Positions 1 through 21,757 of a stretch of 64,000 bases of DNA are shown here, in pieces; the stretch's first letter is position 1, and the number at the start of each line of letters is the position of its first letter. The notes under the pieces are model-generated. The model searched no databases. It was not told the DNA's origin and saw nothing but the letters and a program-made list of their open reading frames with translations. Origin of the DNA: a virus; IMG/VR virus record IMGVR_UViG_3300033388_006651, positions 64,001 to 128,000 of that record; one strand, given 5' to 3'. The translations under genes and the position numbers were made by a program.

Positions 1-12
1 GCCCGTTGGAGA

Positions 13-330
13 ATGCGAAAAGCCGAACAGGCCGGTGAGGTAACCCAAAATTACAAGGATGCAATGCTGGAAGCTCTCGACCATTGTTGCCCGGTTTGCG
101 GAATCCGTTTTCACATGGGCCCCGAGCGCGTTCCAGAACAGTTGACCTGGGATCACGTTGTACCTCTCAGTGAGGATGGCTGCGATGATGACGCTAACCT
201 GCTTCCCCTCTGCCGACGATGCAATTGTACGAAAGGCGAACGTGGGTTTGAAATATGGCTCCAGCGTCCTATCCGCTGCATCGCAGATTTGCGGGAACCC
301 TGGCTAAGGGAAGAGATGTTTGGTGGATGA
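13..330 (+). CDS. HNH endonuclease
   Basis: CPVC...WDHVVPLSEDG.D...NLLPLCRRCN..K HNH/Zn motif. Confidence 0.85.
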   Translation: MRKAEQAGEVTQNYKDAMLEALDHCCPVCGIRFHMGPERVPEQLTWDHVVPLSEDGCDDDANLLPLCRRCNCTKGERGFEIWLQRPIRCIADLREPWLREEMFGG

Positions 331-348
331 CATGATGAAGTACTTTAG

Positions 349-422
349 TGAGCCCAGAAGGATTTGAACCTTCGACCGTCGGATTAAAAGTCCGTTGCTC
401 TACCAGACTGAGCTATGGGCCC
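349..422 (-). tRNA. tRNA-Lys(UUU)
   Basis: Reverse complement GGGCCCA-TAGCTCAG..ACGGA CTTTTAA TCCGA..GGTTCAAATCC..TGGGCTC-A. Confidence 0.95.
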
Positions 423-450
423 AAAGAAAAGGTGAAATGAAAAAATCGGC

Positions 451-840
451 TTGGGGTATGCTGAGAATATGAGGTCGTTCTTCCGAAAATTGCTGACGAG
501 GATTGGGTTTTTGTCCGAGCCTCTGCCCCGGCCCAAAATCTCCTTTAACCTCAGTAGACAAGAGCGGTTGGATTTCCTTTCAGAGCATGGAGGGCGAACC
601 GAGAAGAGTCTTACCGCGCTTATGAATACCCACGGCCCGCATGAAGCCTTAGCCTGCTTGACGGGATCGGAGTTGTTCGGGGTCCAGCAAAGTCGGGTGG
701 GGGTGCCGTCGAAACTCTTTACCCTCGTCTGCTTGGGAATCACAAACCAGAATGGGGAAATGACTAGCTTTGGGCTAACTTTCGCCTATGCCTTGCAGGA
801 GCACCCCATCCAAGCCGTGCTTGAAGGCTCTATCATCTGA
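451..840 (+). CDS. hypothetical protein
   Basis: 129-aa ORF between tRNA and HNH gene; start may be the ATG at 469. Confidence 0.55.
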   Translation: MGYAENMRSFFRKLLTRIGFLSEPLPRPKISFNLSRQERLDFLSEHGGRTEKSLTALMNTHGPHEALACLTGSELFGVQQSRVGVPSKLFTLVCLGITNQNGEMTSFGLTFAYALQEHPIQAVLEGSII

Positions 841-841
841 G

Positions 842-1279
842 CTATGAGCCGAATTCAAGTTTCTTGTACCAGCCAAGCGTTCTGGCCGTTTTTTTCCGGT
901 GACAGTTTGCGCACCGGATCTCACATTTGAGGATTTCTGCTGCTACGCGTTTCCAGGATGCGTCTCGGATCATTTTGGACACGTTGCCTTTTTTCTTGCC
1001 CCGGACATGATCAAAGTCCAAAACAATTGGATCATCTTCACCGCAGTCCACACAGGGATGTGCTTCCAGATACTCCAAAGAACGCCTGTAGTTTTCCCGT
1101 TTCAGATTCAGAGCGGATTGCCGTACCGCAGCGCGTGTTTTGGGGCTCTTTCGGTAATGCTTTTTAGATGCCTCACTTGCACAGGCTTTGCATAGAGACT
1201 GAAGGCCGTCTCGTTTTTGTGCGTTTTTGTAGAACTCTGCACGTTTCTTTTCACTTTTGCATTTAGGGCAGGTCTTCAT
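842..1279 (-). CDS. HNH endonuclease with N-terminal Zn ribbon, within the tRNA-Lys cluster
   Basis: CPKC...CKAC, then CVDCG....LDFDHVRG.K...C.IRCANCH phage HNH pattern. Confidence 0.85.
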   Translation of the reverse strand: MKTCPKCKSEKKRAEFYKNAQKRDGLQSLCKACASEASKKHYRKSPKTRAAVRQSALNLKRENYRRSLEYLEAHPCVDCGEDDPIVLDFDHVRGKKKGNVSKMIRDASWKRVAAEILKCEIRCANCHRKKTARTLGWYKKLEFGS

Positions 1280-1295
1280 TTCTCCATCTTAGCGG

Positions 1296-1368
1296 TGAGC
1301 CACCCGGGAGTCGAACCCGGCTTGACGGGGTAAAAACCCGTTGCAATAAACCGCTCTGCCAATGGCCC
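1296..1368 (-). tRNA. tRNA-Lys(UUU), variant
   Basis: GGGCCAT/GTGGCTC acceptor, ACGGG TTTTTAC CCCGT anticodon arm, GGTTCGACTCC T arm. Confidence 0.9.
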
Positions 1369-1371
1369 TTT

Positions 1372-1439
1372 GGGGGCCAGCAGATCACAGCCGTTGCGGG
1401 GTAAAAACCCGACGTAACAAACCACTGTACTACCGGCCC
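1372..1439 (-). tRNA. degenerate tRNA-Lys(UUU)-like RNA lacking a canonical T arm
   Basis: GGGCCGG/CTGGCCC acceptor and TTTTTAC loop as in the neighbour, but no GTTCRA. Confidence 0.55.
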
Positions 1440-1494
1440 AAGGTTGGAGCGGGAGTACGTTTGAGTGTGTCGTGATGGAGATACATGGTGTCCT

Positions 1495-1647
1495 TTAGCG
1501 GCGAACAGGCCGTGTGGAAAAGTGATGCCCGCAACTGGAGCAGAGGTAAGGTAACGGTGGCCTCCGACGCCTCCAACGTGGCTGGGTGCAGAGTGTCGTG
1601 TCAGTGCTTTCGCACTTCGGACATGGGGGTATGGGCTTGGAATCCAT
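1495..1647 (-). CDS. small Zn-ribbon protein
   Basis: MDSKPIPPCPKC...YLCSSCGH; ATG just after the tRNA 3' end. Confidence 0.55.
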   Translation of the reverse strand: MDSKPIPPCPKCESTDTTLCTQPRWRRRRPPLPYLCSSCGHHFSTRPVRR

Positions 1648-1657
1648 CGTTTTGTAG

Positions 1658-1730
1658 TGAGCCAGGGTGGAATTGAACCACCGCATCCGGGTTAAGAATC
1701 CGACGCTCTAACCAACTGAGCTACTGGCCC
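1658..1730 (-). tRNA. tRNA-Lys(CUU)
   Basis: GGGCCAG acceptor, TTCTTAA loop, GGTTCAATTCC T arm. Confidence 0.9.
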
Positions 1731-1819
1731 TAAATGGCAGCAGGTTCACGGCACGACGCAACGCCGACGTGTCTGCTACCCGTGATCGGCATCGGTCTTT
1801 CGTACCGTGCCGATCACGT

Positions 1820-1896
1820 TGGTGAGCGGGGAGGGATTTGAACCCTCGACCCAGTGATTAAGAGTCACTTGCACAACCAGACTGTGCTTCCCGCCC
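1820..1896 (-). tRNA. tRNA-Lys(CUU), CCA encoded
   Basis: GGGCGGG/CCCGCTC-ACCA, AGTGA CTCTTAA TCACT. Confidence 0.95.
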
Positions 1897-1949
1897 GGAG
1901 ATGATTCGCTACTACGCCCGTAAAGGACGGAGCGATCCATCCCCACGGG

Positions 1950-1982
1950 CTACAGCTTGGATTTCAGTTTCATGCAGAACAT
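1950..1982 (-). promoter_or_regulatory. Lys-rich leader ORF MFCMKLKSKL* followed by a long hairpin
   Basis: ATG TTC TGC ATG AAA CTG AAA TCC AAG CTG TAG between promoter and tRNA-Lys cluster. Confidence 0.65.
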
Positions 1983-1992
1983 GATGTGTTCC

Positions 1993-2021
1993 GTTCTAGG
2001 GGAGCAAGACGGCGAAGTCAA
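1993..2021 (-). promoter_or_regulatory. sigma70-like promoter of the tRNA-Lys cluster
   Basis: TTGACT-N17-TAGAAC. Confidence 0.65.
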
Positions 2022-2126
2022 GCACCTCATTCAATTTTTCCTGGGGATCACCGAACGCCTCCCCAGGTGCCCGAACATCATTGAGAAAAGCAACGGTTCC
2101 CAACACGGCTGCGTAAAAAGAAGGCC

Positions 2127-2927
2127 ATGGAAACTCTTGCAGCGATCCCCATCATCCCCGACAACGCAGCCGGGTACTCCACCATCGCCAACGCCAAGAA
2201 CGCTCTGGACAAGGCTCAGATGCCAGATGGCTCTGTCAGTCTGTTCCTCCTCGTGCACCATTTTCTGGAGGGGATGCCCGAGGCTATCGCAGGTACTCGC
2301 GCTCTTCCGGGCACGCGTGGCCCAAACTCCACAGAGTCACCCCTCTTCGACAAGATTTTCCATGTCCCTCTCCCCTGGAAAGGTGGGGATGTAGACCTCC
2401 CCGAAGAAAGAAACCCCGTTGCTTTACTCAAGGCGCTGGATCGGTCCGGCAACCTGACGGCCCCGTACAAGACGGACATCGTGGTCTACGATCATGCGGA
2501 TCGCGGCACCCTCAAGATCACCCAGTGGCACGCTGATGACCCTCGTGGTGAACACCCCCACAATCATCCTTGGGCGGACGAGGAGCACACGAGTTTCGTC
2601 AGCTACATTGTTCGTGGCGGCTACACCGAGACGATCACCGACAACAACGGGGAGACCACGAGTCGTGATTACCGAGCTGGGGACCTCAACATCGCCAAGT
2701 ACACGGACTTTCACGCGGTCAACAACATTCTGCCCGGCACCTTGACCATCCTCATGTGTGCCCCCCGAGCAGTGGTCAAAGAAAAGGGAACGGAGTGGGG
2801 CTACCTGCTGTTTGAGGAGGGTCGTTCCGAACGGGTGGGCATGAACGATCCCCGGGTGAAAGATGAGACGTTCTTGCAGCGCGCGGCCGTGCAAAACGCG
2901 TCGCTGCGTTTCATCTACAAGAAGTAG
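2127..2927 (+). CDS. cupin-fold protein
   Basis: HPHNHPW...GGYTE...FHAV metal-binding cupin pattern. Confidence 0.65.
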   Translation: METLAAIPIIPDNAAGYSTIANAKNALDKAQMPDGSVSLFLLVHHFLEGMPEAIAGTRALPGTRGPNSTESPLFDKIFHVPLPWKGGDVDLPEERNPVALLKALDRSGNLTAPYKTDIVVYDHADRGTLKITQWHADDPRGEHPHNHPWADEEHTSFVSYIVRGGYTETITDNNGETTSRDYRAGDLNIAKYTDFHAVNNILPGTLTILMCAPRAVVKEKGTEWGYLLFEEGRSERVGMNDPRVKDETFLQRAAVQNASLRFIYKK

Positions 2928-2936
2928 CGCAACCGG

Positions 2937-3308
2937 TCACGCGTACTCAAGACCCCGAGCGTAAAGCCGCGCTCGACCGCCGACGATCTTGCCGACAAGT
3001 TCGTCGGCCCCGACCACGGGACGTTCTCCGCTGACCGTGACGAAGTGATCGAAACGGTATGGGTCATAGGTGATACGACGCCAGCCCCGAGTGGAGGGGG
3101 CCGTCTTCGGAGCCCGGTCTTCACCCCGAACCCCGGCGTGGACATTTTTGCGTTTCTCTCGGATGACACGCTGACGCCCCGACTCGCTCACGGAGAACTT
3201 CACGTTCTCCAGGTGAACGAAGTCGGCATGGCGTTGGACACGGGTGCCTCGACGCACCGAGTAGCGGTCCTTGTGGAGGTTCCAGTAGACGTAAACGCGT
3301 CCAGGCAC
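2937..3308 (-). CDS. phage hypothetical protein (YWNLH...RKNVHAG family)
   Basis: Clear paralogue at 18200-18574. Confidence 0.7.
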   Translation of the reverse strand: MPGRVYVYWNLHKDRYSVRRGTRVQRHADFVHLENVKFSVSESGRQRVIREKRKNVHAGVRGEDRAPKTAPSTRGWRRITYDPYRFDHFVTVSGERPVVGADELVGKIVGGRARLYARGLEYA

Positions 3309-3311
3309 CTC

Positions 3312-3665
3312 CTACTCTACCGGCTGAATCAGGGACGCGTAGGAGAGCAGTTCGCAGTAGATCTGTTCGCAGAACAGGAACAGCTCCAGGTGGTCTTCAC
3401 CCCTCTCCGGGCGCCAGTCTCGGGCGAACGTGAGGTAGTACGCTTGGCGAGCGCGCTCGAACACTTGTAGGTAGTCGAGGAAGGTTCTGTAGGAGGTGAC
3501 TTGCCCCTGGCGCTCCAAGGTCGCCTCCCGCAGCTCCTTGGCGGCTCTGTATTTGCGATTCGCCCGAGCGGGGTCCCCTCTGAACTCGGTGGCTACGTGC
3601 ACGGGGGTGAACTCACCCACCGTGATCACGCTGTCCCAGTCGCTGTCTTCGTTTTCGTCGCTCAT
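3312..3665 (-). CDS. hypothetical protein
   Basis: ATG ORF in a minus-strand run. Confidence 0.6.
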   Translation of the reverse strand: MSDENEDSDWDSVITVGEFTPVHVATEFRGDPARANRKYRAAKELREATLERQGQVTSYRTFLDYLQVFERARQAYYLTFARDWRPERGEDHLELFLFCEQIYCELLSYASLIQPVE

Positions 3666-3715
3666 ACCCCCTAGACGGATGGGCCTCAGAAAACTCCCCT
3701 CTTTCCTCAGATTTT

Positions 3716-3991
3716 TTAGAGGAGCCCCAGTTCCCGAAGCTGCTCACGAAAAGACCACTCGGAAAGTACCTCCTGACGTGACCGCGGCTCTGACCATTTC
3801 CAGGATTTGACCGCACGCCCGTTAAAACGACGAGGGTTCCCACAACCTGAACAGCTACACCACGCCAAGTTGTCGGCGTACTGAGCAGCGACCCGAGTCA
3901 ACTCAGGCTCCTCCACTCCCCAGCGTTCATTCATCCGGTACGCACGGGCCACCATGCGTTGACGGTGATGACGACGAAGCGCCCTAGACAT
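3716..3991 (-). CDS. small basic CGNPRR-motif protein, paralogue 1
   Basis: MSRALRRHH...CSCSGCGNPRR; start reassigned to ATG 3991. Confidence 0.7.
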   Translation of the reverse strand: MSRALRRHHRQRMVARAYRMNERWGVEEPELTRVAAQYADNLAWCSCSGCGNPRRFNGRAVKSWKWSEPRSRQEVLSEWSFREQLRELGLL

Positions 3992-4292
3992 CGACCCATC
4001 CCCGAAGCTCATCAAGCTCCTCTTGAAGCTCAGCTTCCGCCTGTTGCTCAGGAATGGTGAGCGGTGAGTACCAACCCCCACGACGGGGGTTCCCGCAACC
4101 GTGGTAGAGTTTTGAGCAGACCTTGAGGTGGTCGTGGTACTTGACGGCCCGAGAGTCGGCCAGGGTGTGATCCGGGCAGGTGAGAGGGTCGTTCCAGTCT
4201 TGGTCGTAGGAGCTATGCCAACGACGGGTGACGGTACGGGCTTTTGCGATCATGCGATCGCGATGATGACGGCGGAGTGCTCGTTGGGACAT
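3984..4292 (-). CDS. small basic CGNPRR-motif protein, paralogue 2
   Basis: MSQRALRRHH...CSKLYHGCGNPRR. Confidence 0.7.
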   Translation of the reverse strand: MSQRALRRHHRDRMIAKARTVTRRWHSSYDQDWNDPLTCPDHTLADSRAVKYHDHLKVCSKLYHGCGNPRRGGWYSPLTIPEQQAEAELQEELDELRGWVDV

Positions 4293-4347
4293 GCAGGGCT
4301 TTCGGCCCCAGCCCGGTCCTGAGAAGCACTATGCAGCTCAAGCCGGG

Positions 4348-4563
4348 CTAAGGCGTGATCTGCTTGTCCGGCGGATCGTCCATCTCCAACGCGAGACCCA
4401 CGAGCGTCTTTTTTCCATCGCGCTCAGCCATGCTGTTCATAAACTGGTCCCAAGGGACCGCACGCTTCGGAGGCGCTCCGACGAAGATGTACATCTCATG
4501 GCGTTCGGTGCCCGAGAGCATTTCGTCGAGCTCGGCGATGCCGGTTTTGAGTTCCTCAGCCAT
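4348..4563 (-). CDS. hypothetical protein resembling a RecA/DnaB N-terminal fragment
   Basis: LKTGIAELDEMLSG..YIFVG, but no intact P-loop. Confidence 0.45.
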   Translation of the reverse strand: MAEELKTGIAELDEMLSGTERHEMYIFVGAPPKRAVPWDQFMNSMAERDGKKTLVGLALEMDDPPDKQITP

Positions 4564-4596
4564 TCGTGAAAAGACTGCCCGACTATTACACTCGTG

Positions 4597-5604
4597 TCAA
4601 GAAGGGCAGAACGTGACGGTGTAGTTCACCAGGCCATTGGTTTTGCGGCAGTTGAAGGTCGCGGCTTTGTCATCGAACATCCAGGCGTACACCTGGGGAC
4701 AGCTCGCTTTGACGTTGGCGATGTAGCTCTGGCTCGTCGCATCCCAGGCCCGAGCTTTGTTGCTGTCCCAGGGGTTGCAGGTCTGGCCCTCCGGGTTGGG
4801 AGGGGTGCTGTAGGGAGAGCACCCGTAGGCGCACTTGGCGTCCCCACAAACGATCGGTTTCGACATCGAGCACGAGCAGCACAGCTTCGTCTGAGTGCTC
4901 GCAGGGTCCCCGCTGTTGACCGCGTTCTGGCACGGGCTCCAGCAGCTATCCCCTCCGGCGCTCAGACCACTGGGGCACGTCGGGGTCGAGGTGCAGCCCG
5001 ACACCGTGCACCACGGAGCCTGGAGACCAGGATCGGGTACGGGGTTGAAGGTCCCAGCAACGGCCACGATGGCGACAGGCTCGCTCCACCCGTCCACGAA
5101 GCTCACGTCGTAGGTGTCGTACGGACCCAGTCCTCCCATGGCATCGAAGGTGAACTCGGCGATCCCCACGGGAGCTTTCCCCGAGTAGGCGCACTCGAGC
5201 CCGAAGGTCTTGTTGTCCGAGGTGAGGCACGATCCGCTGGTGCAGCACGGCGTGAAGCCGTCGCACAGGTTCTGGTTGTTGAAGGTGCAACCGGTACGGG
5301 GCCAGATGCGACCGCTCCATCCCACGTCCACTTGGAGGGTCGTGGTGTCGGTGCCAGATCCGGCCGCTCCCATCTCCCAGCCACCGTTGTTGAGCCCGCT
5401 GAACCCGCTGTTGCCGACCGAGCCGACCCACACAGAGCTGGTGCACTTGTTGACGAAGTTCACCGTGTGCGTGGTCGGCGGGGTCCCCATGTCCAGTTTG
5501 GCCACTTCCGTGGGGGGATCAACGGCTGCTTCGCCGTCGGATCCTTTACAGGCAACCAGGGCCAGAGAGAACGCACCGAGGGACCAGAGTTTGCGAGCCA
5601 TCAC
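4597..5604 (-). CDS. thaumatin-like (PR-5 family) lipoprotein
   Basis: FVNKC..VWVG, GRIWPRTGC, EFTF, YDVSFVDG, CWSPC, CPQVYAWMFDD; LVAC lipobox. Confidence 0.9.
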   Translation of the reverse strand: MMARKLWSLGAFSLALVACKGSDGEAAVDPPTEVAKLDMGTPPTTHTVNFVNKCTSSVWVGSVGNSGFSGLNNGGWEMGAAGSGTDTTTLQVDVGWSGRIWPRTGCTFNNQNLCDGFTPCCTSGSCLTSDNKTFGLECAYSGKAPVGIAEFTFDAMGGLGPYDTYDVSFVDGWSEPVAIVAVAGTFNPVPDPGLQAPWCTVSGCTSTPTCPSGLSAGGDSCWSPCQNAVNSGDPASTQTKLCCSCSMSKPIVCGDAKCAYGCSPYSTPPNPEGQTCNPWDSNKARAWDATSQSYIANVKASCPQVYAWMFDDKAATFNCRKTNGLVNYTVTFCPS

Positions 5605-5638
5605 TCAAGGAGGTCCTCATAGGGGTAAAAATGATGAC

Positions 5639-6844
5639 ATGCTCGTCCTGTTCCCGTCTGACCCTTTTGAGACCTACAAGCCCGAGCCGGACTACGTCCA
5701 GGAGATCGAGATCGCAAAAGAGTGCGGCCACGAGGTTGCCTTCATCCATTGGGAAGCCCTGGTGAACGATGACGACGCTGCCGCGGCCATCAGGAAGGTT
5801 CCTGTTTTCGAGGATTCCACCCCTGCCATCTACCGGGGTTGGATGCTGACCTCCGAGCAGTACGAGAAGCTCTACGCAGAGCTCCAGATCCATGACGTTG
5901 ATCTGTTGACCACTCCCGACGCCTACCGTAAGGCCCATGAGTTCCCTGGGTGGTACTTGGAGATCCCGAAAGCGACTCCGGCGTCGGCGATCATCCAGAA
6001 GCATGAGATCAGCATGGAGAGGCTGCTCAGCAGGGCCAAGGAGATGCTCGAACAGTACGAGCACGGCATCATCATCAAGGACTACGTGAAAAGTCGGAAG
6101 CACGAGTGGGAGGAGGCGTGCTTCATCCCCGATATGTCCAAAGCTGAGGTGGTGATCGCCAACTTCCTCGAGCGCCAGGGTGACGCTCTCCAAGGCGGCG
6201 TTGTGCTCCGGGAGTTCGTGCCGCTCAAGTCGATCGGTAAGCACCCTGACTCGGGGATGCCAATGGGCGAGGAGTTCCGCATCTTCTGGATGAACGGTCG
6301 AGTGGCCGCCGCTGCGGAGTACTGGCCTTCCGAGTTCTACATCGGTGAGGAGCGTGAAGATGAGAACGCAGGTGACGGGAGCACGTACCGTGTGCCTCAT
6401 GCCCTGAGCACTCTCCCCGATCCACAGTCGCTTCTCGAACTCCTCGAAAACATCGACAACCCGTTCGTCTCGATGGACCTTGCGCGTGCCGAGGATGGTG
6501 AGTGGTTCGTCATGGAGATCGGCGACGGTCAGGTCTCTGGGCTCCCGCGCCCCAAGCTCGATGCCCGGCTCATTTACAGCCGGCTCGATCGGTTGCTCGG
6601 GCCTCCTGGGCTTGCCTCGGACGCGACACCGATGACCCAGGCACAGTTCGCCGGTATGACGTGCCACGCCGAAGGCTGCGACCACACCGGCCACGACACC
6701 GAGATGTACCTGCACCCCAAGTGCCACGTCGGTTCTCCGACCTGGGCGATTTACGAGGACGGCGTCATCAACGTGAAGTGTGCCGAGTGCAAGACGCTCG
6801 TGGTCAGAATCGCGGTTGACCCCGGTACGGTCGTCGAAGATTAG
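5639..6844 (+). CDS. ATP-grasp protein (R2K-like) with C-terminal Cys/His domain
   Basis: IYRGWML, IIKDYVKSRKHEW.EACFI, EFRIF, MDLA..EIGDGQVSG; start reassigned to ATG 5639. Confidence 0.75.
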   Translation: MLVLFPSDPFETYKPEPDYVQEIEIAKECGHEVAFIHWEALVNDDDAAAAIRKVPVFEDSTPAIYRGWMLTSEQYEKLYAELQIHDVDLLTTPDAYRKAHEFPGWYLEIPKATPASAIIQKHEISMERLLSRAKEMLEQYEHGIIIKDYVKSRKHEWEEACFIPDMSKAEVVIANFLERQGDALQGGVVLREFVPLKSIGKHPDSGMPMGEEFRIFWMNGRVAAAAEYWPSEFYIGEEREDENAGDGSTYRVPHALSTLPDPQSLLELLENIDNPFVSMDLARAEDGEWFVMEIGDGQVSGLPRPKLDARLIYSRLDRLLGPPGLASDATPMTQAQFAGMTCHAEGCDHTGHDTEMYLHPKCHVGSPTWAIYEDGVINVKCAECKTLVVRIAVDPGTVVED

Positions 6845-7050
6845 AGGGCGTGGTCTCGAATGGCCTTGGTCAGCCGGCGCACTTTATTGGTGAAAATAGA
6901 GTAGAACCGGGGGTCCACTTCGTGCAGGAGATGGAGGAGAGATTCGATCTCGGCCTCGGCATCTTCCTGGTCCACGATGTTCTTGGCGACGGCACGGGTG
7001 CAGTCGGGCTGAGAGGTGAGCCAGTGGTTGATGCGTTCTTCGTAAGTCAC
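6841..7050 (-). CDS. hypothetical protein
   Basis: 69-aa helical ORF. Confidence 0.5.
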   Translation of the reverse strand: MTYEERINHWLTSQPDCTRAVAKNIVDQEDAEAEIESLLHLLHEVDPRFYSIFTNKVRRLTKAIRDHAL

Positions 7051-7119
7051 GATCTAGGTGTATCGCAGGGTCTTGATCCGCCTCGGATCAAGCGCCGTCG
7101 AGAAAGTTGAAGAATTCGT

Positions 7120-7148
7120 TTGACTCGGCGTCTTAGTCCGCGTACACA
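7120..7148 (+). promoter_or_regulatory. sigma70-like promoter of the main tRNA operon
   Basis: TTGACT-N17-TACACA. Confidence 0.65.
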
Positions 7149-7195
7149 GAAATGGTCGCCGTCCCTTGGCAGGAACGCGACTCAAAGTCCCCGCC

Positions 7196-7288
7196 ATGAA
7201 ACACTCCACGACATACACAGCTACGACAACGACTACGGTCGTCGTGGCCGTCGTATTGCCCATTATGGGCGATATGACCTCGTGTTGA
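7196..7288 (+). promoter_or_regulatory. Thr/Val-rich leader peptide MKHSTTYTATTTTTVVVAVVLPIMGDMTSC*
   Basis: 9 Thr and 5 Val in 30 codons; followed by hairpin TTCCCGGCG/CGCCGGGAA. Confidence 0.75.
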
Positions 7289-7380
7289 GCATTTCCCGGC
7301 GTTGACCAAAACATCAAACGGCGCCGGGAACCCCCAAAGGGTTTGCTTCGCACGTTCAAAGGCCACGCTGGCTCCCATTC

Positions 7381-7456
7381 GCCGGTGTAGCTCAATTGGT
7401 AGAGCACTGGTTTTGTAAACCAGGGGTTGCGGGTTCGAGTCCCATTACCGGCTCCA
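7381..7456 (+). tRNA. tRNA-Thr(UGU)
   Basis: CTGGT TTTGTAA ACCAG; CCA end. Confidence 0.95.
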
Positions 7457-7487
7457 AGTATTTCTCTTCACCCAAGGAACAGACAAC

Positions 7488-7562
7488 GCCTTTGTAGCTC
7501 AGTGGTAGAGCAGCTCATTCGTAACGAGCAGGTCGTGGGTTCGATTCCCACCTTGGGCTCCA
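7488..7562 (+). tRNA. tRNA-Thr(CGU)
   Basis: TTCGTAA loop; CCA end. Confidence 0.92.
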
Positions 7563-7564
7563 AG

Positions 7565-7603
7565 CACCAACACCAACACCAACACCAACACCAACACCAT
7601 CAC
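7565..7603 (+). repeat. (CACCAA)n hexamer tandem repeat between tRNA-Thr genes
   Basis: caccaa x5 followed by caccatcac. Confidence 0.9.
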
Positions 7604-7611
7604 CGACATAA

Positions 7612-7686
7612 GCCCTTGTAGCTCAGTGGAAGAGCGCTTCCTTGGTAAGGAAGAAGTCACGAGTTCGATTCTCGTCTTGGGCTCCA
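7612..7686 (+). tRNA. tRNA-Thr(GGU)
   Basis: CTTCC TTGGTAA GGAAG; CCA end. Confidence 0.93.
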
Positions 7687-7837
7687 GGAACGCAGGACCC
7701 TCGTTCGAAGGTCACAAGCAAAAGGTAAAGACATCTGTTTTTCACACAGAAGACTGCGAGTTCGATTCTCGCCTTCCCCGCCATTTATGGGGAAGTGGTC
7801 ATAAGACGCACTCACCCCGCACACTCTCCTGCGTTCC
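7687..7837 (+). ncRNA. CACAAGC-module RNA carrying a circularly permuted tRNA-Glu(UUC)
   Basis: Outer stem GGAACGCAGGA/TCCTGCGTTCC; tRNA 3' part (7724-7783, ends GCCA) precedes the 5' part GGGGAAG-TG-GTC (7789-7804). Confidence 0.8.
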
Positions 7838-7854
7838 TTAATTTTCACCCTAAT

Positions 7855-7937
7855 CCCAGCGCCTCGTAGAGCGAGGCACACGACAGCAGCTTCGCTTCGA
7901 GGCGAAAATGGCAGGCGACCGGACGGCCTGTGGGATC
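7855..7937 (+). ncRNA. putative multibranch structured RNA
   Basis: ATCCCA/TGGGAT closing stem around three hairpins. Confidence 0.4.
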
Positions 7938-7998
7938 AAACAACCGATTTTTCTCAACCCCAACTTCAACCCCCAACGAACAGAAAGGACCGAGCACG

Positions 7999-8136
7999 AT
8001 GAACATCGAAAACGATGACTGCGATGATGTAGATGATACCTACGGAGCAGTGGCGCAGTTGGTAGCGCACTCGGTTGTCAGCCGAAAGGTCGCCGGTTCA
8101 AGTCCGGTCTGTTCCGCCAAGGGGGTGTTGGTCTAG
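7999..8136 (+). promoter_or_regulatory. Asp-rich leader ORF MNIENDDCDDVDDTY... reading through tRNA-Asp
   Basis: GAAAGGA RBS; 6 Asp in 8 codons directly before tRNA-Asp; stop inside the second tRNA-Asp. Confidence 0.75.
8044..8119 (+). tRNA. tRNA-Asp(GUC)
   Basis: TTGTCAG loop; GCCA end. Confidence 0.92.
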
Positions 8137-8198
8137 TTGGTTATGACGCTTCCCTGTCACGGAAGAAATCGCGGGTTCAAGTCCCGCACATCCCGCCA
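8122..8198 (+). tRNA. tRNA-Asp(GUC)
   Basis: CTTCC CTGTCAC GGAAG; GCCA end. Confidence 0.95.
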
Positions 8199-8204
8199 TT
8201 TTTT

Positions 8205-8279
8205 AGTCCTGTAGCTCAGTGGAAGAGCATTCCCGTCACATGGGAGAGGCCATCGGTTCGACCCCGATTGGGACTACCA
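8205..8279 (+). tRNA. tRNA-Val(CAC)
   Basis: TTCCC GTCACAT GGGAG; ACCA end. Confidence 0.88.
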
Positions 8280-8288
8280 AGAAAACAT

Positions 8289-8363
8289 AGCTCCGTAGCT
8301 CAGTGGCAGAGCAACACCTCGACATGGTGAAGGTCGTCGGTTCGATCCCGACTGGGGCTACCA
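8289..8363 (+). tRNA. tRNA-Val(GAC)
   Basis: ACACC TCGACAT GGTGA (C33); ACCA end. Confidence 0.88.
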
Positions 8364-8422
8364 ACACAACAAGTTACTAAGACACAAGGCCCTCCGTTCC
8401 ATTTTGTGCTACGCTCAGAAGA

Positions 8423-9097
8423 GTGAAGCCGGACAAACAAAAAGAGGCGCGTAGACTGCGTAAGCAGGGCCTTTCTTTGAGTGAGATCGTTACCAAAATT
8501 GGATGCGCAAAAAGTTCGGTTAGCCGCTGGACCCGGGATATCCCTCTCACTAAGACTCAAGTCAAAAACCTTCGACGAAAGGAAGATCAAGGACGACTTA
8601 AAGGCCGTATTGCAGCCGCTACCCATCCCAACTCTCCGAAACAGGTGTGGGCTAAAAAACGAGATGAAGCACGTCAAAAAGGGCACGAAGAGATTTCCCG
8701 GATCGATGACATCTCTCTCAAAATACTCATCGCGGCACTGTACTGGGGGGAAGGGTCAAAGGGTCGTAACAGTTTTTCCATAGCGAACACGGACCCTGCA
8801 ATGGTCCGCCTTATTGCCGCCTTTCTTCGAAAACATTGTCAAGTTCCTGAAGAGCGCCTTCGTTTTCGCGTCTACATTCATCCTCATTTGAGTCTCCGAA
8901 AAGCTCGTATTTACTGGGCTAAAATTGCAGGAACCTCCCCTAAAAATATCGCATCCACCACCGCTGTAAGCTCAGCTAGCCAAGGAAAGAAGGACTCGTG
9001 CCCTTACGGCACTTTTCAAATCACGTACTGTGACACCCTGTTTCGGTCTCGCATAGAAGGCTGGATGGATGCCTTGAAAGAACAGATACCGGGTTAG
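8423..9097 (+). CDS. HTH plus LAGLIDADG-like endonuclease inserted in the tRNA-Val cluster
   Basis: N-terminal HTH (GLSLSEI..KSSVSRW), ALYWGEG..F.IANTDP motif; more AT-rich codons; stop lies inside tRNA-Val(UAC). Confidence 0.7.
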   Translation: MKPDKQKEARRLRKQGLSLSEIVTKIGCAKSSVSRWTRDIPLTKTQVKNLRRKEDQGRLKGRIAAATHPNSPKQVWAKKRDEARQKGHEEISRIDDISLKILIAALYWGEGSKGRNSFSIANTDPAMVRLIAAFLRKHCQVPEERLRFRVYIHPHLSLRKARIYWAKIAGTSPKNIASTTAVSSASQGKKDSCPYGTFQITYCDTLFRSRIEGWMDALKEQIPG

Positions 9098-9161
9098 CTC
9101 AGTGGTAGAGCGCTGCCCTTACAAGACGGATGCAAGAGTTCAATTCTCTTACCCGGTACCA
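9088..9161 (+). tRNA. tRNA-Val(UAC)
   Basis: CTTACAA loop; ACCGGGT/ACCCGGT-ACCA. Confidence 0.9.
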
Positions 9162-9201
9162 GACCTCAAACCTCAACCTCTAACCACGAAAGGAACCGAC
9201 C

Positions 9202-9264
9202 ATGGAAAAAGAAGACAGCGACATTAGCGACATTATCTACTCGGCCCGTGGTCCAGTCTGGTAA
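9202..9264 (+). promoter_or_regulatory. Ile-containing leader ORF MEKEDSDISDIIYSARGPVW* reading into tRNA-Ile
   Basis: GAAAGGA RBS; ATT, ATT, ATC codons just before tRNA-Ile(GAU); stop in the D-loop. Confidence 0.65.
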
Positions 9265-9316
9265 TGGATGTCGCTCTGATAAGGCGAAGACGGAGGTTCA
9301 AATCCTCCCGGGCCGA
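9242..9316 (+). tRNA. tRNA-Ile(GAU)
   Basis: TCGCT CTGATAA GGCGA; CGGCCCG/CGGGCCG-A. Confidence 0.9.
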
Positions 9317-9326
9317 CCGACTACAT

Positions 9327-9403
9327 GGACGTGTAGCTCAGTTGGTTAGAGCGCAGCCCTGATAAGGCTGAAGTCGAAAGTTCAAATCTTTCTACGTCCA
9401 CCA
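9327..9403 (+). tRNA. tRNA-Ile(GAU)
   Basis: CAGCC CTGATAA GGCTG; ACCA end. Confidence 0.95.
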
Positions 9404-9424
9404 AGAGATTTCCAAAACACATAT

Positions 9425-9499
9425 AGCGGGATGGCGCAGTCAGGTAGCGCGCTGGGCTCATAACCCAGAGGTCGTCGGTTCAAATCCAACTCTCCGCTA
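9425..9499 (+). tRNA. tRNA-Met(CAU), initiator-like
   Basis: CTGGG CTCATAA CCCAG with three G-C pairs; small acceptor-stem irregularity. Confidence 0.88.
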
Positions 9500-9505
9500 C
9501 TAAGG

Positions 9506-9663
9506 GCAGTAGAAGTCTGCTTGCGAAATATCTCCCTTCACCGGGAAGAGACGCTAGCGAACAAAACTTCATCCTCGCAACGGAGTTGAGGGGAGAGCAG
9601 TAGGAGATCTGCTTGCGACAATAGGCCCCGTAACTGGGTATCGAAGATAGCGAACAAAACTCC
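9506..9663 (+). ncRNA. tandem pair of a structured RNA motif (GCAGTAG..TCTGCTTGCGA-hairpin-TAGCGAACAAAACT)
   Basis: Two copies, 9506-9570 and 9597-9663, with conserved flanks and different central hairpins. Confidence 0.65.
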
Positions 9664-9672
9664 AACACTTGA

Positions 9673-9750
9673 CGCGGGTTGGGGAAGTCCGGCCATCCCG
9701 GTGGGCTCATAATCCACAGACCCTCGGTTCAAATCCGAGACCCGCTACCA
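9673..9750 (+). tRNA. tRNA-fMet(CAU)
   Basis: C1-U72 mismatch, CTCATAA loop, ACCA end. Confidence 0.92.
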
Positions 9751-9809
9751 AATCCAGTTCGACAGTGTGCGCCCGTGCGAGCCGAACCGAGTGTAGAAAC
9801 GGGCCTCAT

Positions 9810-9887
9810 GCCAGAATAGCTCAGTTGGTTAAGAGCGCTCCCCTCATAAGGGAGAGGTCATCGGTTCAAATCCGATTTCTGGTACCA
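9810..9887 (+). tRNA. tRNA-Met(CAU), elongator or Ile2 type
   Basis: CTCCC CTCATAA GGGAG; ACCA end. Confidence 0.9.
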
Positions 9888-9904
9888 CAAGAAACCAAGA
9901 AGCC

Positions 9905-10018
9905 ATGAACATCCACCTGAAACAGTTGCCCATCGGCACGGCCAGTCGCATCTCGTTGTTTGCGGCCGGACAGGTGTGTTCTGCCTATCTCCCCAATCTG
10001 GAGACAGGTAGCGGATAA
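9905..10018 (+). promoter_or_regulatory. 37-aa leader peptide of a putative attenuator
   Basis: MNIHLKQLPIGTASRISLFAAGQVCSAYLPNLETGSG* just before alternative terminator/antiterminator pairings. Confidence 0.55.
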
Positions 10019-10041
10019 CCCTCAGCTCGATCATGGCGCCT

Positions 10042-10077
10042 AAAAGCCCGTCGAGCTCCCTGCTCGCCGGGCTTTTT
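10042..10077 (+). terminator. intrinsic terminator (attenuator)
   Basis: AAAAGCCCG-TCGAGC..GCTCG-CCGGGCTTTTT; AGCTCGA at 10024 can sequester the 5' arm. Confidence 0.75.
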
Positions 10078-10245
10078 CGTGCTCGGGCCAAGGATCAACG
10101 GCCCTCTCGAGCCCTTTTTCGCCAAACCCTCCCTGGGCCCTCCTTTTCGGACATTTTCACGAACTTTTCACGAACCAAACCAACCACGGGGTACAAGGGA
10201 CGAGCCCGAGTGCTCTGCTTTTCACGAATCAGGACAGACAAGCCA

Positions 10246-12114
10246 ATGGACAACAAAGAAACACTCGGACCCGCAGAGACCATCATCCAGTCACTGCTGG
10301 CCTACTCAGATCACATCTACCACGGCCGCCCCGGCGTCGTGGTGCCCGACGCGCGATCCACGACCGGAGTGCGATGGGACCCCGTCACCCACAAGGTCGG
10401 AGAGGACGGCGTCAAGACCGTTCTTCGCCTCACGCGAAACGGCAAGAAGACCATTCGTACCGAGATCGGCACGATGAACGGCGACAATCGTGTGAAGAAC
10501 GCGGGTGCCGATGTCGGCCTGTACCGCAAGAGCGGCCTCTTCCCAGAGGTTGCCCTGTGGTTCTACAAGCAGATCGCTGAGGTGTGGACGCTCGACAACG
10601 AATTCGCTGCTCGGTGGGCGTCGTACGCCTTCCGTCAGGAGCACCGTGACCTCAAGGTCATGCTCGCTGCGTTCATGCTCGTTCAGTCGCGTAAGGGCGA
10701 CCCCGTCATGGACGGGGGTGAGCGTCTGTTCGACGACGAGGACTACCGTGACGTGGGCGAGGCCATGGTCCTTCTCCTTGAGAAGGGCAACGACCTCAAC
10801 CCGAAGCTCCTGCTTCGGATCTACGATGTCCTGAACCTGCCCGAGATCGCAAAGATCAACCACGAGCTCGGCTTCGGCAAGTCCGCCAAGCGTCCGTTCC
10901 TCGGTCGTTGGCCCAAGGCGATCGACAAGTACCTTCGGTACCGCGAGGAGAACCCGAAGCTGCTCGAAGGGCTCGTCAACAAGGCTGCTTTCGGCAACAC
11001 CGTCAAGACTCTGGCTCGGCGTATCGGCTACAAGCCAACGTCCGACAAGTTCTTCGCTACCCTACGCTGGAAGCAGAAGCAGGCTGAAGACGGGCGTCGT
11101 GAGATGGCCATCGGTAAAGCCGTGAGGGCTGCTGAGTCGTGGGATCACCTCGACGAAGCCGGTGTTTGCGAGCTCATCGAGAAGAACAAGCCTGGCTGGA
11201 AGCGGATCGTGGGTCTCCTTCCTGCGAAGATCGGGGTCACCCGTGCGGTGATGGCTGCGACCATCGAGTCGGGCGGTCTCTCGGACAAGGATCTCATCAT
11301 CCTCACTCCAACGATCGAGGATCTTGGTCTGTTCAAGGTCCAGGAGATCAAGGCGCGTCATGCTGCGGCTCTCGCCAAGGCAAGCGACATGCGTGCGGCT
11401 AACATCGCCCGCAACGTTCGGTCCAAGGATCTCAAGGAGGAGATGGAGACCGGTGCCGACAAGGCAGCTCAGAAGGCTGCTGAGGAGGTCATCAAGAACC
11501 TGCGCCTCTACGTCGTCATCGACCGTTCGGCGTCGATGCAGGGAGCACTGGAGAAGGCGAAGCCACTGATCGCCAAGCTCATTCAGGCAATCCCAGCCGA
11601 GCGTCTGCACGTTTCGACGTTCAACACGATCGGTAAGGTGATCACCTTCAAGCACCACTCGACCGCTGGGGTCGAGGCAGCTTTCCGGGGCGTCAACGCC
11701 GGAGGGGGCACGGTGCACGCAGAAGGTGTTCGGGTTCTGGCTCAGTTCCCGCCTGCGGCAGACGAGGACTCCCTGATGATCTTCATCGGGGACGAGGGCG
11801 AGCGTCGGCACTTTGCCGAAGCTGTGGAGGCATCTGGTCTCCGTCCCCTGGCCTTCGGGCTCCTCGCCACGGTGGGTCCTCGTTGGGGTCGCGGTCAGGC
11901 GATTCGGGACACGGCTGCTCGACTGGACATCCCGTGCTTCGAGATCGATGACCGCACCTTTGATGGCGACCCGTACGCCATCCCGCGTACGATCAGGAAC
12001 CTGATCGCGGCTACCCCTGTGGGGGTGAACACCGGTCGTCGCGTCGTCCCGCGCGTGACGCTGGTGGGTCAGATCCTGGAGACCGAGATTCTCCAGAAGC
12101 CCAACTGGGCATAG
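10246..12114 (+). CDS. Ro60/TROVE-like protein with C-terminal vWA domain
   Basis: Long basic helical N-terminal region plus VIDRSASM MIDAS, GGGT, FIGDEG; the Ro60 relationship is inferred from architecture and ncRNA context; start reassigned to 10246. Confidence 0.6.
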   Translation: MDNKETLGPAETIIQSLLAYSDHIYHGRPGVVVPDARSTTGVRWDPVTHKVGEDGVKTVLRLTRNGKKTIRTEIGTMNGDNRVKNAGADVGLYRKSGLFPEVALWFYKQIAEVWTLDNEFAARWASYAFRQEHRDLKVMLAAFMLVQSRKGDPVMDGGERLFDDEDYRDVGEAMVLLLEKGNDLNPKLLLRIYDVLNLPEIAKINHELGFGKSAKRPFLGRWPKAIDKYLRYREENPKLLEGLVNKAAFGNTVKTLARRIGYKPTSDKFFATLRWKQKQAEDGRREMAIGKAVRAAESWDHLDEAGVCELIEKNKPGWKRIVGLLPAKIGVTRAVMAATIESGGLSDKDLIILTPTIEDLGLFKVQEIKARHAAALAKASDMRAANIARNVRSKDLKEEMETGADKAAQKAAEEVIKNLRLYVVIDRSASMQGALEKAKPLIAKLIQAIPAERLHVSTFNTIGKVITFKHHSTAGVEAAFRGVNAGGGTVHAEGVRVLAQFPPAADEDSLMIFIGDEGERRHFAEAVEASGLRPLAFGLLATVGPRWGRGQAIRDTAARLDIPCFEIDDRTFDGDPYAIPRTIRNLIAATPVGVNTGRRVVPRVTLVGQILETEILQKPNWA

Positions 12115-19923: not shown

Positions 19924-21523
19924 TCGTGATCAGGGTTCCGTCGAACTTCCGAAGGTCGAACCCTGTGATCGTCTCGTTGTAGGTGGCCAGCACGTTTTTG
20001 AGGTACTGGATGGCGACCTTTTCACCAAGCAGGATGCCCTCGTCACCGTCGCTGCGGTAGTGGACGCCGGCCATGTTGCGGGCCGTGGAGAGGTTGCTGG
20101 CGAGTTTTCCGAGTTCGGAGCTGACCGTGATCACATCGACCACGGCAGGGGTGGTGATGGCGGCAGCATCAAGCTCGGCCATCGTCTCGTCTCCGGTGAT
20201 GGATTCCACGATTTTGAAGGTCCCGCTGTCCAGGTCCTTCATCAGGGTGTCGCCGTCGAAGAACGCCTTGAGGAGCGTCGCACAGGCCCCAGAAAGGACG
20301 GCATGGCCTGCCGGGTAACTCGGGTGCGTAGGACTACCCTCCGGGTACATGAGCGGCAGGAGGTACGTGGCGCTTCCGTTGAGGGTGTTGGCTGCCAGCA
20401 TGTTGGCTGTGGTCGTTGCACCCAAGACGGAGGCATCCAACAAGTAGTCCTGGGCATCGTCGAGGGTGAAGTGGACGCGACCGGCGTAGACCTCTGGACG
20501 TAGACGCATGTGGGCCACCCACTTCTGCCGCCACGCTGCTTTGAGTGCCAGCTCTGAGACGTGAAAAACGCGGTCGAGAATCTCGCCGGCTCCGAGAGTG
20601 ACGAAGCCGTCCTCGTTTGCCAGGACGGGGATGTTCGGGTCCAGGGGCGCACCGTTCTGGAGCAGGATCTGCGCTGCGTTGAAGAACGCCAGGCCAGGAG
20701 GGTCGTTGTGAACGTAGCTTCCGAGTACTCGAGGAGAGAACGCGCGTTTGCGGGTGCCCGTCAGGTTGGCGCCGTTTGGCGTGATGCCATTTTGGATGTC
20801 GAGCCACCCTGCGGTGGTGATCGATGGAGCCGCATCGCTCTCGGTTTCGATCTCCTGGGCGACGGCGATGTTCCCCATGTTGAAATCGTGCAGGAGAAAT
20901 TGGCTGACGTACGGTCCCACCGTTTCGTCGTACCCAGTTCCACGAAAGAGCGTCCCGCGCGTGACGACGCCACCGTCTTTGGGCCCCATGAACGATCCAG
21001 CCAGGGCGTTTAGATCGGTGAGGAGGGAGGTGACGACGGGTTCTTGAGATGTGGTGCCGTTCTGGATTGCGTTGAACGATTCGTCACGAAGGAGGGCCAT
21101 GCCGTAGACCTCGATCATCTCGCCACCGGCCTCGGTAGAGGTCATGGACGGGGCTGCTGGCATCGAGACCGAGTAGGCATCTGCGCCGCTGAGGCTGAAC
21201 GCCAGAGCGGCCTGGGGATTCGTCAATTTACGAACCGCACCGGTGGCACGCACGATGCGATCGAAGTAGCTCTGGTCCCCGCTGCGGAGGGCCACCTCCA
21301 TATTCACGAAGTTCTGATCGGTGACTTCGCCGTAGCTGTTGTGCGGCAGTGTTTTCGAGTAGAGCGCCGTGCGGTAGAGAGTGCCGGCGCGATCGATGAC
21401 GAGGGCCCGATCGTTGTTGAGCGGTTGGACGACATCTGCCTCTGACCGTTGGAAATTTGCCCGGTCGATACGGAAGTCGTATGGGAGCCCGGTGGGGTCG
21501 GAGGGATCTTGGCGCTTCGGCAT
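19907..21523 (-). CDS. vanadium-dependent haloperoxidase
   Basis: QKW..H.RLRPE, SPTHPSYPAGHA, RNMAGVHYRSD vanadate-binding motifs. Confidence 0.9.
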   Translation of the reverse strand: MPKRQDPSDPTGLPYDFRIDRANFQRSEADVVQPLNNDRALVIDRAGTLYRTALYSKTLPHNSYGEVTDQNFVNMEVALRSGDQSYFDRIVRATGAVRKLTNPQAALAFSLSGADAYSVSMPAAPSMTSTEAGGEMIEVYGMALLRDESFNAIQNGTTSQEPVVTSLLTDLNALAGSFMGPKDGGVVTRGTLFRGTGYDETVGPYVSQFLLHDFNMGNIAVAQEIETESDAAPSITTAGWLDIQNGITPNGANLTGTRKRAFSPRVLGSYVHNDPPGLAFFNAAQILLQNGAPLDPNIPVLANEDGFVTLGAGEILDRVFHVSELALKAAWRQKWVAHMRLRPEVYAGRVHFTLDDAQDYLLDASVLGATTTANMLAANTLNGSATYLLPLMYPEGSPTHPSYPAGHAVLSGACATLLKAFFDGDTLMKDLDSGTFKIVESITGDETMAELDAAAITTPAVVDVITVSSELGKLASNLSTARNMAGVHYRSDGDEGILLGEKVAIQYLKNVLATYNETITGFDLRKFDGTLITIMPDS

Positions 21524-21574
21524 CTCACTTGAGTCCCGGCTATAGGAGGGTCAGTGGTTTTCTGAACAAAACCC

Positions 21575-21602
21575 TTGACTCTGCGTCTGAGGCGAGTACA
21601 TT
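21575..21602 (+). promoter_or_regulatory. sigma70-like promoter of the His/Phe tRNA cluster
   Basis: TTGACT-N16-TACATT. Confidence 0.6.
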
Positions 21603-21680
21603 CGGTTTCAAGGTAACTCTCATGTTGACGCAAGCACATACCCAGCTCCCCGATGCGGGAGCCGACTACAACACCATCAT

Positions 21681-21757
21681 GGTGTCCGTAGCTCAGTTGG
21701 TAGAGCGTTCGCTTGTGACGCGAGAGGCCGCGGGTTCAAACCCCGTCGGACACCCCA
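21681..21757 (+). tRNA. tRNA-His(GUG)
   Basis: G-1/C73, TTCGC TTGTGAC GCGAG, CCA end. Confidence 0.95.

Follow-up and report, generated by a model that had tools for sequence, protein, structure and literature searches.

A conserved leader with lysine codons and two mutually exclusive predicted RNA folds ahead of the tRNA-Lys cluster of a huge phage

The tRNA-Lys cluster and its leader region

The window, i.e., the whole 64,000-nucleotide stretch of DNA that was analysed, comprises bases 64001-128000 of a 146.8-kb IMG/VR virus record with a CheckV completeness of 28%; the record is therefore a fragment of a huge phage. The window holds all 20 tRNA genes of the record, and these genes are sorted by amino acid. 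The tRNA-Lys cluster consists of four genes on the minus strand, namely two tRNA-Lys(CUU) genes (1896-1820 and 1730-1657) and two tRNA-Lys(UUU) genes (1368-1294 and 422-348); the first gene, in which the CCA end is encoded, was called by ARAGORN and scored 62 bits with the Rfam tRNA model. The first-pass annotation had proposed that both lysine isoacceptors are present in the cluster and that the leader precedes tRNA genes rather than biosynthetic genes. Both proposals hold: two CUU and two UUU genes were found, and what ARAGORN and Rfam place downstream of the leader is these four tRNA-Lys genes, not biosynthetic or aminoacyl-tRNA synthetase genes.

The cluster is interrupted, also on the minus strand, by a 50-aa zinc-ribbon frame (1647-1495) and a 145-aa frame without a Pfam match (1279-842). 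In place of these two frames, two related phages (L090, 1600-2020, plus strand; L020, upstream of 5184, minus strand) carry a protein frame of ~140 codons inside the Lys cluster, which stops at a TAG whose G is nucleotide 1 of a tRNA-Lys(UUU) and which encodes LKRK ~24 codons ahead of that stop. A tRNA-Lys(UUU)-like sequence on the minus strand of the window (1372-1440) has an acceptor 5' strand, a D-arm and a TTTTTAC anticodon loop without a proper T-arm, and lies 3 nt ahead of the real tRNA-Lys(UUU) at 1368-1294; it was called neither by ARAGORN nor by Rfam and may be a decayed duplicate. The spacer between both tRNA-Lys(CUU) genes (1731-1819, minus strand) contains two stable hairpins, one of them with a 10-bp stem (GTGATCGGCA/TGCCGATCAC), and structured spacers therefore occur beyond the leader as well. 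Between the Lys and Thr tRNA clusters, a thaumatin-family protein (Pfam PF00314, E 1.4e-31) with a lipoprotein-like signal, LALVAC, is encoded on the minus strand (4597-5604), and it is adjoined by an R2K-type ATP-grasp gene (5639-6841; PF14243).

The leader occupies a 230-nt intergenic gap between the minus-strand tRNA-Lys cluster and a divergent plus-strand gene of 266 aa, which starts at 2127 and is without a Pfam match. On the minus strand, the gap contains the promoter-like sequence TTGACT-N17-TAGAAC (1993-2021; TTGACT 2021-2016, TAGAAC 1998-1993), followed after 10 nt by the mini-frame MFCMKLKSKL* (1950-1982; ATG 1982-1980, TAG 1952-1950). Three of the ten codons specify Lys and are placed at every second position (1956-1970), with AAA (1970-1968), AAA (1964-1962) and AAG (1958-1956) at positions -6, -4 and -2 from the stop. 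A hairpin of 15 pairs with one bulge (hairpin H, 1916-1950), derived from folding and covariation, begins on the G of the TAG, and a spacer of 19 nt (1915-1897) separates it from the first tRNA-Lys(CUU). The promoter, the frame with its AAA, AAA and AAG codons, a ~15-bp hairpin starting on the stop-codon G, and the tRNA-Lys were all found on the minus strand where the first-pass annotation had put them.

A scan for consensus promoters did not return TTGACT-N17-TAGAAC, the second hexamer of which ends in C, not T. A search of the 64-kb window for TTGAC-N18-TANAA found no match besides the one in the leader, indicating that the other tRNA clusters use different promoters. An A/T-rich block (GAAAAATTGAAT, 2029-2040, minus strand) lies 7 nt upstream of the -35 hexamer, and relatives have an AAATTGAA-like or T-rich block at the equivalent place; by its sequence, the block in the window is a possible UP element. 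The window frame stays open further upstream, across the promoter, and the conserved start is the ATG at 1982. When the 230-nt intergenic region was shuffled with dinucleotides preserved, 26 of 5000 shuffles (0.5%) gave a frame of at most 15 codons with at least three Lys codons; this statistic from a single locus is, taken alone, no more than suggestive.

Conservation of the leader among related phages

The vWA protein encoded near the locus (10033-12111) shares 50-76% identity with hundreds of metagenomic proteins, and a vWA alignment (A1, 23 proteins) was used to fetch 64 huge-phage loci, the closest relatives showing 65-72% identity in the best segment of this protein. In these closest relatives, four IMG/VR phages (L020, L016, L017 and the 618-kb phage L090) that were reached via the vWA protein or tRNA similarity, the leader was found ahead of the first tRNA-Lys(CUU) of the Lys cluster. 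Single-protein queries with the 266-aa divergent gene and the ATP-grasp gene returned no loci, and tRNA bodies were the only matches in phage GenBank (blastn, distant mode). The phages retrieved with a generic tRNA-Lys(CUU) pattern were unrelated, had mixed tRNA arrays and lacked the leader, and hairpin- and spacer-based patterns in IMG/VR gave no phages beyond those already known.

Metagenome and genome collections were then searched with a pattern that is blind to the Lys codons, consisting of TAGCC, GGGC and the first 16 nt of the tRNA in this order, separated by gaps. This pattern produced 45 matches, of which 23 were on phage contigs with a tRNA-Lys(CUU) next and 22 were at ordinary bacterial tRNA loci. 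All 23 tRNA-Lys(CUU) matches, and none of the 22 bacterial loci, have a short frame whose last seven codons include two or more Lys codons. The pattern matches and the viral contigs amount to 17 distinct leader sequences encoding 13 distinct peptides; because the metagenome pattern required TAG, the identity of the stop codon is independently observed in five phages only. Furthermore, a covariance model of the leader, applied to 1.27 Mb of related phage DNA, identified one copy per phage and none elsewhere, and the copies always stood ahead of the first tRNA-Lys(CUU) of the Lys cluster. All copies share one ancestor and represent ~11 lineages by our own grouping of the 17 leaders; this is conservation, not repeated invention.

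Two observations concern the contigs themselves. Compared with the window (1885-2031), L127 and L145 have near-identical leaders with the same peptide, placed on two different tRNA-Lys(CUU) bodies (GGGCGGGAAGCA... and GGGCCGGTAGCT...), and leader and tRNA therefore recombine as separate modules. A Lys leader encoding MFCMKRKTKL lies on a 72-kb contig (L159, JBDHAB010000014.1) that was binned in a Gemmatimonadota MAG; the binning of phage contigs is unreliable, so this is a hint only, either of a Gemmatimonadota host or of a mis-binned phage contig.

The mini-frames comprise 9-12 residues with two or three Lys codons, and their lengths of 30, 33, 36 or 39 nt differ by whole codons only. The start codon is ATG in the distinct leaders, with GTG once. 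Position -2 from the stop is AAG in all 13 peptides, while position -4 is Lys in 12 and position -6 in 11 of the 13, and the conservation of Lys codons in orthologous leaders, which had been put forward in the first-pass annotation as a check, is thereby borne out. The codons between the Lys positions vary freely (L, R or P at -5; S, T, H, L or R at -3). Synonymous changes are seen among close variants at F2 (TTC/TTT), P6 (CCC/CCT/CCG), K7 (AAA/AAG) and L10 (CTG/CTT/CTC), and a population variant from another marine-type sample has one synonymous change (TCC to TCA) as well as two single-base deletions, both of which lie outside the frame. Among the sequencing runs listed as containing this DNA, none is catalogued as RNA. 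The N-terminal half of the peptide differs by subgroup (MFCM, MTVVA, MGFS, MSL, VTVR, MSGIR), which disfavours a conserved micropeptide. Arg codons are also frequent in the mini-frames, and a basic nascent peptide could be the selected feature.

The promoter-like sequence is retained along with the frame. In 16 of the 17 distinct leader sequences, TTGAC-N17-TA[GCA]AA[CAG] stands 8-10 nt ahead of the start codon, and in the remaining one a weak promoter-like site lies 11 nt ahead of it. The -35 hexamer is conserved, as is the spacing of 17 nt; the -10 hexamer, TA[GCA]AA[CAG], is non-canonical and lacks the final T. No conserved Shine-Dalgarno sequence was found ahead of the mini-frame start in the 17 distinct leaders, and this, combined with the closeness of the start codon to the -10 hexamer, suggests that the RNA is leaderless or nearly so and that translation of the mini-frame would be leaderless. 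Among the phage's own genes, an SD-like 4-mer lies upstream of 30 of 65 frames, a crude count with first-ATG starts that is too rough to judge the leader. Taken together, the fixed distance of the start codon from the promoter, the whole-codon length differences, the synonymous changes, and the fixed Lys codons with free neighbours indicate a selected reading frame. Judged from sequence comparison, the leader is a real and conserved element that is specific to tRNA-Lys and under selection.

Two mutually exclusive predicted folds between the stop codon and the tRNA

The 94 nt from 1990 to 1897, which include the hairpin, fold with a predicted dG of -33 kcal/mol and a z of -3.2 against shuffles, and hairpin H has a z between -3.6 and -6.3 in 15 variants. 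Unconstrained folding from the TAG to the tRNA gives H in most variants and another structure of equal energy in three. A constraint that kept 13 nt unpaired, counted from the T of the TAG, as a ribosome would, produced a second fold (Alt, 1897-1944, minus strand) in 16 of the 17 variants; the remaining variant, L017, is without a good Alt fold. In Alt, GGGGATGG (1944-1937) pairs with TCATCTCC (1904-1897) and TCGCT (1935-1931) pairs with AGCGA (1910-1906). The G-rich 5' arm and the loop of H are thus paired with the spacer, so that pairing covers the 5' leader of the pre-tRNA as far as tRNA position -1, and a small inner hairpin is formed by the 3' arm of H alone. The RNAalifold consensus is Alt plus four pairs, in which the G of the TAG and the CCC after it (1950-1947) are joined to tRNA nt 1-4 (1896-1893); these four pairs are invariant, and covariation is uninformative on them.

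The two folds are close in energy. In the stretch of the window from the TAG to the tRNA, H has a dG of -24.7 and Alt of -23.6; across the 15 aligned variants, the dG spans -22 to -27.5 kcal/mol for H and -18 to -28 kcal/mol for Alt, and the gap is never larger than 4.5 kcal/mol. Covariation was scored for each fold in alignment A4. For H, 85% of cells are paired and the score is 0.291 (shuffled mean 0.190, reached by 0/500 shuffles; best slid control 0.175), with 4 pairs and 10 cells changed on both sides. For Alt, 81.5% of cells are paired and the score is 0.328 (shuffled mean 0.215, reached by 0/500 shuffles; best slid control 0.126), with 10 pairs and 31 cells changed on both sides. H and Alt are each more stable than shuffles, and in no variant did any of 200 shuffles match both states. 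Because the G-rich strand is common to both, H and Alt are mutually exclusive, and covariation in both of two such folds is the hallmark of a regulatory RNA switch. The hairpin is, accordingly, one state of a bistable RNA, and this is what is new here.

Other pairings and comparisons added little to this picture. Pairing of the 3' half of the frame with tRNA nt 5-30, a candidate from the MFE folds, was rejected, being mostly within the range of shuffles (z +1.0 to -2.9) and not conserved; the mini-frame region belongs to neither conserved fold. The MFE of the leader with the whole tRNA, compared with shuffled leaders, was uninformative, since the acceptor stem is often missing with shuffled leaders too. 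An Rfam search of positions 1-10000 (E<=1) returned tRNAs only, with no leader family and no T-box.

The sequence that follows the H stem is GTAGTAGC. In none of the 17 variants is H or Alt followed by a U-run; T-runs occur in three of them only, and there no closer than 11 nt downstream. A terminator scan (a GC-rich stem-loop, then at least 5 U in 8 within 0-2 nt) likewise found nothing at 1916-1950 on the minus strand. Neither H nor Alt is therefore an intrinsic terminator. Moreover, Alt needs the spacer, which is transcribed after H, and so it cannot act as an antiterminator of H; no upstream partner was found for the 5' arm of H. The first-pass annotation had described the layout as attenuator-like. 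The layout stands as a conserved unit, now with two exclusive covarying folds, but a terminating role of the hairpin does not stand, and the attenuator reading captures the general idea but not the mechanism: what lies here is a two-state RNA on a pre-tRNA, without a terminator.

A proposed ribosome-read switch on tRNA-Lys maturation, its alternatives and its relation to known systems

With a terminator absent and a competitor fold that uses the downstream spacer, the switch points to pre-tRNA folding or processing, not to transcription attenuation. In the reading that we prefer, to which a probability of roughly 0.5 is given, a ribosome-read leader heads the tRNA-Lys operon of the phage and would tune the maturation of new tRNA-Lys to the supply of Lys-tRNA. 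Transcription would probably start at the ATG or 1-4 nt before it, so that a leaderless frame of 10 codons opens the RNA. In state H, the local hairpin would keep the 19 nt of the pre-tRNA leader unpaired and would not hinder folding of the tRNA; in state Alt, a long helix would bury the RNase P site and the 5' acceptor strand of the tRNA. The footprint of a ribosome reaches ~12-15 nt downstream of the P site, with a toeprint at +15/16. If Lys-tRNA is scarce, a ribosome would wait at -6, -4 or -2, short of the G-rich strand, H would form once the 3' arm is transcribed, and tRNA-Lys would mature. If Lys-tRNA is plentiful, a ribosome at the stop would cover the G-rich strand while the 3' arm emerges, and the 3' arm would fold on itself; after release of the ribosome, the G-rich strand would capture the pre-tRNA leader and the 5' end of the tRNA, and less tRNA would mature. 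The net logic would be that scarce Lys-tRNA raises the output of tRNA-Lys and plentiful Lys-tRNA lowers it, as in trpL without the terminator. That the frame is translated, where transcription starts, in which direction the output responds and that processing is the step affected are all inferred. Because H and Alt share the 5' strand, a ribosome cannot favour one of them thermodynamically and the choice must be kinetic; a weak point of the kinetic model is that it would demand a tight coupling of a leaderless ribosome to RNA polymerase. The switch is physically linked to the first tRNA of the cluster only.

Several other explanations were weighed against this ribosome-read switch. One is classical transcription attenuation, with a terminator hairpin ahead of the tRNAs and stalling on the Lys codons that blocks the hairpin and lets transcription read through into the cluster. 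A frame of cognate codons that directly abuts a stable GC-rich hairpin is indeed laid out like trpL or hisL; however, the U-run is missing from all 17 variants, the competitor fold is made of later-transcribed sequence and cannot pre-empt termination, the 5' arm has no upstream partner that could be found, and a ribosome stalled at -6 or -4 would leave the hairpin intact, which gives the wrong sign. We consider this explanation improbable. The hairpin might also work in a feed-forward manner, pausing RNA polymerase or blocking processing until a ribosome at the stop codon melts it, so that tRNA-Lys is made while translation runs well, a response opposite in sign to that of the preferred reading. 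A ribosome with the TAG in its A site would cover approximately the first 9-12 nt of the 5' arm (by established footprint geometry), and pause hairpins that are released by a leading ribosome are known in the trp and his leaders, but such a device leaves the fixed Lys codons and the cognate frames of each tRNA family unexplained and gives the covarying Alt fold no role; it is judged to be quite unlikely.

Translation might also be beside the point. The leader could be an untranslated, bistable RNA for the folding or processing of the pre-tRNA (e.g., an RNase P, RNase III or RNase E site, or a stabiliser), with the frame as a by-product, and this would agree with the good support for both folds, the lack of a conserved Shine-Dalgarno sequence and the structured spacers between later tRNAs of the cluster. 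The whole-codon length changes, the start codon at a fixed distance from the promoter, the synonymous-type changes at four codons, the fixed Lys codons with free neighbours, and the position of the frame region outside both conserved folds all stand against it, and we hold it to be unlikely. At the other extreme, the product of the frame could matter in itself, as a functional micropeptide with a hydrophobic start and a Lys/Arg-rich end or as a nascent peptide that acts on the ribosome, unrelated to the supply of tRNA-Lys. All 13 peptides do have a hydrophobic N-terminus and a basic C-terminal half; however, the N-terminal half is not conserved across subgroups, position -5 accepts L, R and P, and the element is always joined to tRNA-Lys(CUU) and the RNA switch, which makes this explanation very improbable.

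The ribosome-read switch on tRNA-Lys may have counterparts at other tRNA families. Mini-frames rich in Thr, Asp, Ile or His were found ahead of the corresponding tRNAs in the same five phages, and several of these frames continue into the body of the tRNA. The frames of these other families were chosen by a script that took the frame richest in the cognate residue, and the choice is hence biased; despite this bias, the runs of 6-8 Asp and 7-9 Thr are far beyond chance. A mini-frame with an HHH run reads into tRNA-His in three relatives (L019, L016 and L017), and in the copy before tRNA-His in the window (21480-21681, plus strand) the His run is lost (MLTQAHTQLPDAG...). The spacer between tRNA-Thr(CGT) and tRNA-Thr(GGT) is taken up by a CACCAG repeat (7563-7611, plus strand), which reads HQHQHQ in one of its frames and does not match the amino acid of the tRNAs beside it. 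A broader proposal, which we put forward tentatively and with some doubt, is that these phages control their own supply of tRNAs by a feedback specific to each amino acid, with a translated mini-frame of cognate codons at the head of every family (Lys, Thr, Asp, Ile, His); for Lys, the dwell time on AAA and AAG would decide between release of the pre-tRNA 5' end to RNase P and its capture.

It has long been asked why tRNA genes are found in phages and how they are controlled. If the preferred reading is true, a Lys-specific demand sensor on a four-gene tRNA-Lys cluster would bear on phage counter-defence. tRNA-Lys is a recurrent target of bacterial anticodon nucleases. Under the broader proposal, the phage could replace tRNA-Lys destroyed by a host nuclease such as PrrC or PARIS AriB (PMC11464382). 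The current answers for phage tRNAs in the literature include codon compensation and escape from tRNA-cutting host defences (PMC10264068, PMC11464382), and full-text literature searches returned no paper on leader frames ahead of tRNA genes and no regulatory device for phage tRNA genes. A ribosome-read switch of this kind would extend textbook ribosome-sensed attenuation from amino-acid operons to the tRNAs themselves, in a compact module of ~125 nt, and its output would be new, namely sequestration of the pre-tRNA 5' end, so that attenuation acts on tRNA maturation and not on transcription.

Parts of the proposed switch resemble known systems to different degrees. T-box riboswitches are also RNA leaders that sense one tRNA species and switch between two folds; however, they recognise the tRNA without a ribosome, by direct contacts of a specifier loop and the T-box sequence, whereas the phage leader has no Rfam T-box match and is far too short. 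The leaderless regulatory frames of Actinobacteria (the mycobacterial polycysteine sORFs and the whiB7 uORF attenuator) likewise start at or near the 5' end of the transcript, lack a Shine-Dalgarno sequence and use cognate codons as a sensor, but they control protein-coding genes. In translational attenuation of the ermC, cat and cmlA type, a stalled leader ribosome remodels a downstream stem-loop after transcription and without a terminator, as is proposed here; the stall there is caused by drug binding and a ribosome-binding site is unmasked, whereas in the phage leader slow decoding of Lys codons is presumed to be the trigger, and masking would affect the tRNA 5' end with the RNase P site.

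A further comparison is with the attenuators of amino-acid operons and pheST in E. coli (trpL, hisL, thrL, pheL, leuL and pheM). These share with the phage leader a short frame in which codons for a single amino acid are over-represented, a stop codon set against a strand with two possible partners, such that the position of the ribosome can select the fold, and a feedback logic on the supply of charged tRNA. The phage leader differs in that it is without a U-run terminator and without a conserved Shine-Dalgarno sequence, is probably leaderless, and has just two or three regulatory codons, at every second position. It also precedes tRNA genes, and its second fold would sequester the 5' leader and acceptor strand of the pre-tRNA in place of stopping RNA polymerase.
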